In this document: piece after piece, positions 17,186-17,600 of the stretch
Position numbering within the stretch: position 1 is the stretch's first letter
Layout: each line of letters starts with the position of its first letter
Origin: Escherichia coli
GTDB lineage: Bacteria > Pseudomonadota > Gammaproteobacteria > Enterobacterales > Enterobacteriaceae
Direction: 5' to 3' (one strand)
DNA length: 30,887 nt
Assembly: GCF_003334405.1 (NCBI RefSeq)
Contig: NZ_QOWM01000028.1
Translations under genes and position numbers: made by a program
The notes under the pieces: model-generated
What the model saw: only the letters and a program-made list of their open reading frames with translations
What the model was told of the DNA's origin: nothing
Database searches by the model: none

Positions 17186-17397
17186 GACGGAATGTAAGAA
17201 CGTAAATTTATTCCGAGCCGCTACGGAAGATGAAAAACGCAAGGTTGTTGAAAGCGTTGTGTTTTTTTATGGTAGTGCCGTCAGCAGGAATGTTGTCCAG
17301 GGCGAAAAGCTTCTTCCTCGTTTCGCCCTGCCTTTCTTAAAAATTCCGTAATGCAAAGTCTGAAGCCATCGCCTGTTGAGCAATGAAAGAGATCTGA

Positions 17398-17426
17398 TTG
17401 TAAGAGAGTAAATACTCAACTATGAT
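17398..17426 (+). promoter_or_regulatory. Candidate sigma70 promoter for an intergenic small RNA
   Basis: TTGTAA-(17 nt)-TATGAT read directly from the sequence, about 170 nt upstream of a tandem-hairpin plus U-tract terminator on the same strand. Confidence 0.45.
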
Positions 17427-17433
17427 AGAGACG

Positions 17434-17600
17434 AAAATAAGAACACATGTTCTCATCTTCCAGGATGCAGCAGACTGAAGAAATTCAGACATCCCGCAAC
17501 CTGCGATTATCGCAAGGTCAAGGCAAAGTCCGGTAATGGCGTTCTGAATACCAGAGATAATTCTCTGGCGAAACCCACCTTAAGGTGGGTTTTGTTATTT
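17434..17600 (+). ncRNA. sroH: Candidate small RNA (SroH-like) in the thiH-yjaZ intergenic region
   Basis: Promoter-like element at 17398..17426. The 3' end has a perfect hairpin CCAGAGA-TAAT-TCTCTGG (17551..17568), then AAACCCACC-TTAA-GGTGGGTTT (17571..17592) followed by TTTGTTATTTT, which is an intrinsic terminator in the plus orientation only. No ORF of 60 codons or more. An sRNA of about 160 nt (SroH) is reported between htrC/yjaZ and thiH in E. coli K-12; its strand and exact ends here are inferred. Confidence 0.45.

Follow-up and report, generated by a model that had tools for sequence, protein, structure and literature searches.

The Escherichia coli small RNA SroH as a member of a predicted pseudoknotted RNA class that is paired with the yjaZ gene

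Two kinds of described gene pair resemble the locus reported here. In type I pairs such as txpA/RatA and bsrG/SR4 of Bacillus subtilis, the two RNAs are convergent and overlap at their 3' ends. In type III toxin-antitoxin systems (ToxIN, CptIN and TenpIN), a protein is matched with a dedicated pseudoknot-forming RNA and the two reside on plasmids and phages as a self-contained pair, as is the case for our locus. The RelE/ParE-superfamily toxins and the CdiA-CT RNase toxins are also to be named among the systems nearest to the protein concerned. The locus is the sroH-yjaZ region of Escherichia coli, analyzed in a stretch of 30,887 nucleotides from contig NZ_QOWM01000028.1 (assembly GCF_003334405.1; hereafter the window, to which coordinates refer unless another record is named), where the small RNA (sRNA) gene sroH lies between thiH and the convergent gene yjaZ. 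SroH and its homologues are inherited and mobilized together with YjaZ as a self-contained pair. By comparative sequence analysis, SroH is the E. coli member of a class of RNAs of ~130 nt with six covarying helices and a predicted pseudoknot that extends from the Enterobacterales to the Cyanobacteria. We put the probability that SroH is a dedicated partner controlling YjaZ at roughly 0.55, and its action on YjaZ would probably be antitoxin-like.

As a genetic element, sroH is already known. The Rfam model RF00372 (sroH) matches 17433-17593 (+) over model positions 1-161 with 201.1 bits (gathering score 80), and NC_000913.3 annotates the noncoding RNA sroH (b4691) at 4190327-4190487 (-), flanked by yjaZ and thiH and in the orientation of thiH. 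The window is 100% identical to K-12 MG1655 across the interval and runs opposite to the K-12 map. A preliminary description of this DNA, made from its letters alone, had thus identified SroH correctly, and its statement that the function of the RNA is unknown agrees with the literature (PMC5389530, PMC6172242). The primary transcript is polyadenylated at its 3' end and accumulates in a pcnB mutant, and processed forms have been reported (PMC5389530). SroH rises strongly in stationary phase in a CRP-dependent manner (bioRxiv 10.64898/2025.12.22.696124). It was enriched with Hfq in photoactivatable-ribonucleoside-enhanced crosslinking and immunoprecipitation (PAR-CLIP), yet is said not to be an established target of Hfq (bioRxiv 10.1101/2020.06.29.178624). 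Gel shifts showed binding in vitro to one target, kbl mRNA (PMC6172242). K-12 survives deletion of sroH, with cell-envelope stress as the sole phenotype given where PMC5389530 cites the mutant, and overexpression of SroH produced no biofilm or motility phenotype (PMC4606813). The RNA has been lost from phylogroups B2 and D and from some Shigella (PMC3318445), and PMC3415461 describes it as less conserved between E. coli and Klebsiella than any other sRNA. The cross-phylum pseudoknotted class and its near-invariable pairing with YjaZ were not found reported in the literature searched: the search returned no paper with a six-helix pseudoknotted fold, a cross-phylum range or an obligate YjaZ pairing of SroH, and nothing that connects sroH with yjaZ, or either gene with toxin-antitoxin systems.

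Evidence for the class comes from a shared fold. When 17433-17600 was folded on the RNA strand, the predicted energy was -58.5 kcal/mol (z = -5.9), and none of 200 shuffled sequences was equally stable. A structure model was derived from a MAFFT alignment of 44 copies using RNAalifold and manual inspection, with core position 1 placed at window position 17461. In this alignment 94.7% of cells are paired, compared with 33-46% in slid controls, and 28 pairs show double changes. A second alignment of 52 sequences, based on a covariance model built in this work (R1), gave 98.3% paired cells against 34-49% in slid controls and double changes at 29 of 41 pairs; it is biased towards the fitted structure, and the MAFFT figures are the more conservative. 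For either alignment, 0 of 500 shuffles reached the observed values. A near-invariant G-U pair, present in 49 of 51 copies, would be a mismatch if read on the other strand, and the structure therefore belongs to the strand of SroH.

The RNA as a whole occupies 17433-17599 (+), of which the conserved core is 17461-17599 (133 bits with model R1), and all parts of the predicted fold given here lie on the plus strand. Helix P1, GGAUG/CAUCC (17463-17467/17490-17494; core 3-7/30-34; double changes at 3 of 5 pairs), encloses the internal loop CAGCAGA (17468-17474; core 8-14), which is followed by P1a (17475-17479/17484-17488; core 15-19/24-28; double changes at 5 of 5 pairs). A three-way junction is closed by P2 (17495-17498 with 17537 and 17539-17541; core 35-38/77, 79-81), where 4 of 4 pairs covary, 100% of cells are paired and a conserved G bulges out at 17538 (core G78). 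P3 (17499-17518; core 39-58) is always an ACC...GGU hairpin but varies in length, reaching ~40 nt in the RNA of the phage-plasmid pSX48-3, and P4 (17522-17531; core 62-63/70-71) leads into an invariant junction, CCGGUAA (17530-17536; core 70-76). Covariation also supports the predicted pseudoknot CAGA/UCUG (17471-17474 with 17543-17546; core 11-14 with 83-86); at its pair 12/85, 47 copies have A-U, 2 have G-C and 1 has C-G. Next to it, the noncanonical pair 17470/17547 (core 10/87) is perfectly correlated, being G.A in most copies and otherwise A.G or A-U. At the 3' end stand the P5 hairpin CCAGAGA-UAAU-UCUCUGG (CCAGAGA/UCUCUGG; 17551-17568; core 91-108) and the P6 intrinsic terminator (17569-17600; core 109-134), in which the stem at 17571-17592, AAACCCACC/GGUGGGUUU, is extended by CG/UG and followed by the U-tract UUUUGUUAUUUU over the yjaZ stop codon. 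Both 3' hairpins had been seen in the preliminary description; they are present in the sequence and in the minimum-free-energy fold, and covariation is found at 7 of 7 pairs in P5 and 8 of 11 in P6. Nearly all conserved bases belong to a helix, a junction or the pseudoknot, with no free seed apparent among them, and judged by this conservation pattern SroH does not look like a seed-pairing sRNA. RF00372 annotates the terminator stem only, and cyanobacterial as well as many gammaproteobacterial copies fall below its threshold (43-79 versus 80 bits); the cyanobacterial copies matched no other Rfam family, only sroH below threshold. The Rfam model, which misses most of the family, could thus be improved.

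The geometry at the two ends of the RNA is equally well defined. The noncoding interval 17186-17594 was confirmed at 409 bp, bounded by the end of thiH at 17185 (+) and the yjaZ stop codon at 17595-17597 (-; the gene runs 18134-17595 in the open reading frame (ORF) list). Within it, the sigma70-like promoter TTGTAA-17-TATGAT proposed earlier for 17398-17426 (+) scores 9/12 and is one of 2 promoter-like sites in 17000-17800 (0.6 ± 0.7 in shuffles); the predicted transcription start, 7 nt past the -10 box, is the annotated 5' end of SroH (17433). Near-consensus promoters, scoring at least 9/12, precede the RNA in 44 of 52 homologous loci. Because the -10 box ends 7-9 nt ahead of the P1 GGAUG in 24 loci, the RNA would normally start at P1 in most homologues, and the leader at 17433-17460 (+), which folds into a small hairpin and contains an ATG at 17447, is specific to the E. 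coli/pSX48-3 lineage. At the other end, the U-tract TTTTGTTATTTT spans the yjaZ stop codon (TTA on this strand), as had been noticed before. All 44 aligned sequences have TTTGTTA, in which the yjaZ TAA stop appears as its reverse complement; in the DNA of all 44 copies the stop codon lies within the U-tract, and the transcripts would overlap accordingly. The claim that the terminator works only in the plus orientation is borne out across 52 homologues, with 5-6 T in the 8 nt past the G+C stem on the RNA strand versus a median of 2 on the yjaZ strand. The shared hairpin is a terminator for the RNA only, and because the U-tract sits on that strand, yjaZ lacks a proper terminator of its own. A simple scan for terminators gave no site on the plus or the minus strand, and covariation and T counts were used in its place. 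At the sequence level, sroH therefore has the promoter and intrinsic terminator of its own that mark an independent sRNA gene.

The second line of evidence is the constancy with which the RNA accompanies yjaZ. A scan of one genome per species found 43 YjaZ loci, in Gammaproteobacteria and many Cyanobacteria. Almost all of them have the RNA convergent to the gene according to a five-sequence nucleotide profile, with which R1 agrees at 81-134 bits. Where a full-length YjaZ gene and its downstream sequence are both available, a convergent RNA is present in 35 of 36 loci across Gammaproteobacteria and Cyanobacteria. The convergent order is seen in 50 of 52 loci, the same-strand order occurring only in the rearranged loci L035 and L057. 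Among the loci surveyed essentially no intact yjaZ was seen without the RNA, and the flanks of the module contain no third conserved gene.

The same arrangement was found on mobile elements, among them prophages, conjugative plasmids, a phage-plasmid and ColE1 plasmids of 2.4 kb. YjaZ homologues are carried by 577 PLSDB plasmids, 4 of which are wrongly labelled E. coli records of chromosome size. In each of the four plasmid loci examined (a phage-plasmid, two ColE1 plasmids and one IncF plasmid), Rfam sroH scores above threshold directly downstream of, and convergent to, the yjaZ homologue. On ColE1-type plasmids of 2,462 bp yjaZ is the main cargo, with two short hypothetical ORFs listed besides on pB1022. 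In pSX48-3 (NZ_CP142794.1; locus L003, 4973-5699), a phage-plasmid of 92 kb, the cassette lies among tail and baseplate genes in the opposite orientation, like a moron. A tblastn search of deposited phage genomes with YjaZ returned nothing, and the P1 DNA pattern matched 5 viral contigs, 4 of them with YjaZ. In metagenomes this pattern was found in at least 120 stretches (121 matches), and 12 chance matches were removed. Among the matches listed there are at least 109 true RNA copies: 67 beside a full convergent YjaZ, 12 beside a partial YjaZ, 13 orphans and 17 at a contig end. In the same set, 27 of 33 RNA clusters formed at 93% identity include a copy with a full YjaZ partner.

When the pair is broken, it is the protein gene that suffers. 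Orphan RNAs usually retain a few C-terminal yjaZ codons, and since these last codons remain, yjaZ has been deleted from the orphan loci. Such intact RNAs with the last yjaZ codons only were found beside the ogr and portal genes of a P2-like prophage (L054, 2929-3062, -) and adjoining a relBE pair and an integrase (L062 and L103). In pB1022 and pS51A yjaZ is frameshifted and the RNA intact; in strain ET650 an IS1 inserted in the cassette interrupts yjaZ and spares the RNA. In O157:H7 strains (EDL933, TW14359 and others) SroH is likewise intact and the cassette matches in two pieces covering 93%, which indicates an internal yjaZ deletion of ~71 bp (window ~17664-17735; annotated 'protein HtrC').

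Cyanobacterial yjaZ genes (L019-L034 and other loci, ~1470-1500) lack a Shine-Dalgarno sequence and have, 3-8 nt ahead of the ATG, a -10-like box (TATACT, TACAAT or TATATT), a pattern suggestive of leaderless mRNAs. Pairing of SroH with the yjaZ 5' untranslated region was considered and dropped: the cyanobacterial genes look leaderless, and a 9-mer, UCUGAAUAC, common to SroH and the upstream region of K-12 yjaZ (18242-18250), recurs in only 2 of 47 loci.

In E. coli the pair forms a cassette of ~950 bp (17350-18297) with junctions at 17349/17350 and ~18297/18298, the right one just before the terminator of rpoC (22570-18347, -). Of 5,426 complete E. coli genomes, 3,741 (69%) carry the cassette, and ~1,690 match the region only to ~17349. 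In avian pathogenic E. coli (APEC) O18 (L002), thiH is followed directly by rpoC: identity extends to ...aaaaattccgt (17349), and 25 unrelated bp separate this point from the rpoC terminator. Because homology breaks at 17349 in cassette-free strains, 17186-17349 is assigned to the thi operon and 17350-~18297 to the cassette. The two origins of the interval, the union of sroH and yjaZ in one mobile cassette and the conserved pseudoknotted fold beyond the enterobacteria were not visible in the preliminary description.

YjaZ (formerly HtrC) is a basic protein of 179 amino acids (isoelectric point 9.3; family median 9.2), and the earlier htrC assignment of EcoCyc has been retracted (PMC11551758). 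NCBIfam NF007263 matches it at 430 bits and names the family only. The superfamily comprises 725 representatives at 50% identity, nearly all of them stand-alone proteins of ~180 amino acids. Within the family, H52, K56, K138, R141 and H143 are invariant and Y148 is near-invariant. Structure modeling predicts an alpha/beta globular protein. No match to YjaZ was found in Pfam-A, PHROGs or PADLOC, a profile search of the PDB gave chance hits only, with none to RelE or ParE, and a Foldseek search of AFDB50 returned almost exclusively the protein's own family. The YjaZ model did not match the ToxN or Kid/MazF folds either.

A more distant clade appears to follow the same plan. An estimated 450 or so plasmids, mostly from Klebsiella, carry a YjaZ paralogue of 29-35% identity and make up most of the plasmid hits; blastn with the RNA found no match on the plasmids of this clade. 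Beside the paralogue stop codon there is nevertheless a convergent promoter-to-terminator unit in pKPC-LK30 (NC_020893.1; L056, RNA 3038-3187, -) and in a Pseudomonas aeruginosa plasmid (L058, RNA 2553-2693, -). Read from the sequence, the layout of this divergent RNA has P1 as GGAUG/CAUCC or GGGUG/CACCC with the loop GUUACAGGG, P2 as CGCA/UGCG or CGCU/AGCG, then P5 and a terminator, and a pseudoknot CAGG/CCUG in place of CAGA/UCUG; R1 scores it at 17.9 bits only. The paralogues at L059 and L060 also face a small convergent transcription unit that ends at the stop codon, and its 5' domain is more diverged. In pKPC-LK30 the paralogue comes after a restriction-endonuclease gene, with ISKpn26 and IS26 flanking it. 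On the Erwinia persicina plasmid of L059 (1943-2916), the paralogue and its convergent RNA lie between a tyrosine recombinase gene and a gene for a 'putative phage abortive infection protein', in surroundings that resemble a defense island.

The reading we prefer is that SroH is a dedicated partner controlling YjaZ. Transcripts of yjaZ would run into or past the sroH terminator, and complementarity between the 3' ends of the two RNAs would lower yjaZ expression. The conserved core of P1-P4 and the pseudoknot may in addition bind the basic YjaZ protein and keep it inactive, so that SroH could act through 3' antisense overlap, through direct binding by the core, or through both. SroH would then be an abundant RNA antitoxin, destabilized by poly(A), against a toxin- or RNase-like YjaZ. 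The pair would serve plasmids and phages as an addiction or defense module, and the E. coli copy would be a domesticated chromosomal version induced in stationary phase. The strong promoter, the poly(A)-dependent turnover of the RNA, the residence on plasmids and phages and the persistence of the RNA without the protein are all consistent with an antitoxin-like role. The restriction of the U-tract to the RNA strand, the basic nature of the YjaZ family and the place of yjaZ as the principal cargo of the 2,462-bp ColE1 plasmids fit such a role too. We suggest more tentatively, and at somewhat less than even odds, that SroH and YjaZ typify an unrecognized class of RNA antitoxin and protein toxin (or of abortive-infection system). 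In such a class a nonrepetitive, pseudoknotted RNA of ~130 nt, convergent into the stop codon of a basic protein of ~180 amino acids, would neutralize that protein. Carried by ColE1 mini-plasmids, conjugative plasmids, phage-plasmids and prophages, the pair would have spread across bacteria as far apart as Enterobacterales and Cyanobacteria.

Several points weigh against control of a toxic YjaZ by SroH. Binding of YjaZ to SroH and toxicity of YjaZ are inferred, and the RelE-like signal in the YjaZ model is weak and weaker still when residues 68-179 are modeled alone. A viable K-12 sroH deletion and the lack of a biofilm or motility phenotype on SroH overexpression would be unexpected for a potent toxin, unless yjaZ is barely expressed. 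Hfq enrichment and kbl binding make roles in trans possible. The exceptional locus L035, from a Thiomargarita metagenome-assembled genome, has the RNA upstream of yjaZ on the same strand and none downstream. The excess of RNAs without protein is partly to be expected, yjaZ being a four-fold larger mutational target, and both this asymmetry and the linkage are accounted for almost as well if YjaZ requires the RNA as a cofactor.

In that cofactor model, YjaZ would form a ribonucleoprotein with SroH as its obligatory RNA subunit, structural or guiding, and SroH would activate or target YjaZ instead of inhibiting it, for example in a defense or RNA-processing complex. Strict co-occurrence and co-mobility, the compact pseudoknotted fold with its invariant junction bases and the lack of any full-length yjaZ seen without the RNA are what such a complex would produce, and the viable sroH deletion, as cited in PMC5389530, suits a cofactor better than an antitoxin. 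The model nonetheless predicts remnants of both kinds, and orphan yjaZ genes were not seen, whereas intact RNA outlasts the loss or frameshifting of yjaZ in 13 orphan and 12 partial loci of 92 evaluable copies among the matches listed. The convergent overlap at the stop codon also suggests antagonism over co-expression. On this evidence we consider an RNA subunit unlikely, though it deserves to be taken seriously.

Could SroH instead be an ordinary trans-acting, chaperone-assisted sRNA working on unlinked mRNAs (such as kbl or those of envelope-related genes), with yjaZ as an incidental neighbor? Published results in its favor are Hfq enrichment by PAR-CLIP (bioRxiv 10.1101/2020.06.29.178624), binding of kbl mRNA in gel-shift assays (PMC6172242), the envelope-stress sensitivity of the deletion mutant as cited in PMC5389530, and stationary-phase induction with CRP dependence (bioRxiv 10.64898/2025.12.22.696124), to which the usual promoter-to-terminator layout may be added. 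Set against this, an RNA that is convergent to the YjaZ gene in 35 of 36 loci of two phyla, and on plasmids and phages besides, is not an incidental neighbor. Its conservation is structural with no free seed evident, the module moves among hosts without common target genes, and the PAR-CLIP report itself describes SroH as not an established Hfq target. An ordinary trans-acting role is accordingly improbable in our view.

Action in cis only, by antisense pairing or transcription interference that sets yjaZ expression with no protein contact, would make the locus type I-like, after the manner of B. subtilis RatA/txpA and SR4/bsrG. It would account for the invariant convergent layout with the stop codon inside the RNA U-tract, for the missing U-tract on the yjaZ strand of the shared hairpin and for the strong promoters of the RNA. 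However, antisense control needs complementarity rather than a conserved fold, and P1, P2, P4, the CCGGUAA junction and the pseudoknot all lie outside the minimal overlap, yet are the parts most conserved across phyla. We rate this explanation slightly below the last. That the RNA is instead an mRNA for a small protein can be set aside as extremely improbable: the 29-codon ORF at 17447-17536 does exist, as the preliminary description had reported with justified doubt, but it is not conserved and was rejected as coding, its ATG lying in a leader absent from most homologues, whereas the frame from the conserved ATG within GGATG varies from 1 to 55 codons (MQQT-stop in several cyanobacteria), marking the RNA as noncoding, and is broken by indels, as in pSX48-3, there is no ribosome-binding site, and substitutions are compensatory in helices rather than synonymous.

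All E. coli have the remainder of the interval (17186-17349), which forms the 3' end of the thi operon. It contains two terminator-like hairpins outside the SroH unit, and its fold (17186-17350) has z = -3.6. The first (17232-17268, +) consists of an A-tract, a stem and a U7 tract and has the look of an intrinsic terminator; its AACGC/GCGTT stem and T7 (17236-17268) were correctly recognized before, as was the second, a 10-bp stem, CAGGGCGAAA/UUUCGCCCUG, followed by CCUUUCUU (17298-17330, +). Their earlier assignment to the thi operon was right as well, both being kept in strains without sroH such as L002. Around the cassette there are no flanking direct repeats, and Tandem Repeats Finder returned 0 rows for 17150-18350. 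A perfect 12-nt inverted repeat, GTTTTTTTATGG/CCATAAAAAAAC, at 17261-17272 and 18296-18307 brackets the cassette, falling in the U-tract of the thi terminator and the A-tract of the rpoC terminator. It is probably a mere consequence of terminator composition, but could have aided deletion of the cassette in cassette-free strains. Two minus-strand ORFs, 17492-17337 (51 amino acids) and 17419-17267 (50 amino acids), were judged unsupported: both cross the junction at 17349/17350 and were seen in E. coli copies only (98-100% identical). The first includes a hydrophobic stretch, CVLIFVSIIVEYLL, and is antisense to the SroH promoter and 5' end; it is probably not a gene.

Other features of the window lie outside the interval. 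A genomic SELEX (systematic evolution of ligands by exponential enrichment) study, PMC5493296, counts the rpoC-yjaZ spacer (18135-18346) as one of the constitutive promoters to which a minor sigma factor binds. The section title suggests an extracytoplasmic-stress sigma factor, which could provide a link to the envelope-stress phenotype cited for the sroH deletion; inspection of 18135-18346 by eye revealed no clear sigma-E motif. A thiamine pyrophosphate (TPP) riboswitch (RF00059) matches at 11640-11740 (+) with 74.8 bits (threshold 54.3); presumably this is the leader already known for thiC in the thi operon. The Rfam family P26 (RF00630) matches at 26990-26929 (-), upstream of rpoC, with 74.5 bits (threshold 36), presumably in the rplL-rpoB region.

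For twenty years SroH has passed for an E. coli sRNA of poor conservation whose targets are unknown, and comparison now places it in a mobile two-part unit that crosses phyla. Two separate questions thereby become one: does SroH bind or silence YjaZ, and what does released YjaZ do? If the two are an RNA antitoxin and its protein toxin, the 'orphan' sRNA SroH and the y-ome gene yjaZ of K-12 would explain each other. A toxin-antitoxin or defense role would also account for the cassette being the main cargo of very small plasmids and for its absence from about a third of E. coli.

The comparison with known systems shows where such a unit would stand. Like the type I pairs txpA/RatA and bsrG/SR4, sroH and yjaZ are convergent genes with a strongly expressed, unstable RNA and 3' ends that would overlap. 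Type I toxins, however, are short hydrophobic peptides, whereas YjaZ is a basic, soluble protein of 179 amino acids, and the most conserved part of SroH is a folded domain outside the overlap, unlike in these antisense pairs. The antitoxins of ToxIN-like systems are made of tandem direct repeats, and their genes precede the toxin gene in a single operon, on the same strand and with a terminator in between. SroH, on the other hand, is a single unit of ~130 nt without repeats, has its own promoter and is convergent to yjaZ in nearly all loci, and the YjaZ model gives no match to the ToxN and Kid/MazF folds. In contrast to members of the RelE/ParE superfamily, YjaZ has neither a sequence-profile match to that superfamily nor a conserved protein antitoxin gene beside it. 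Should SroH and YjaZ prove to be a toxin-antitoxin or defense system, they would represent an RNA-antitoxin architecture unlike those of types I and III.

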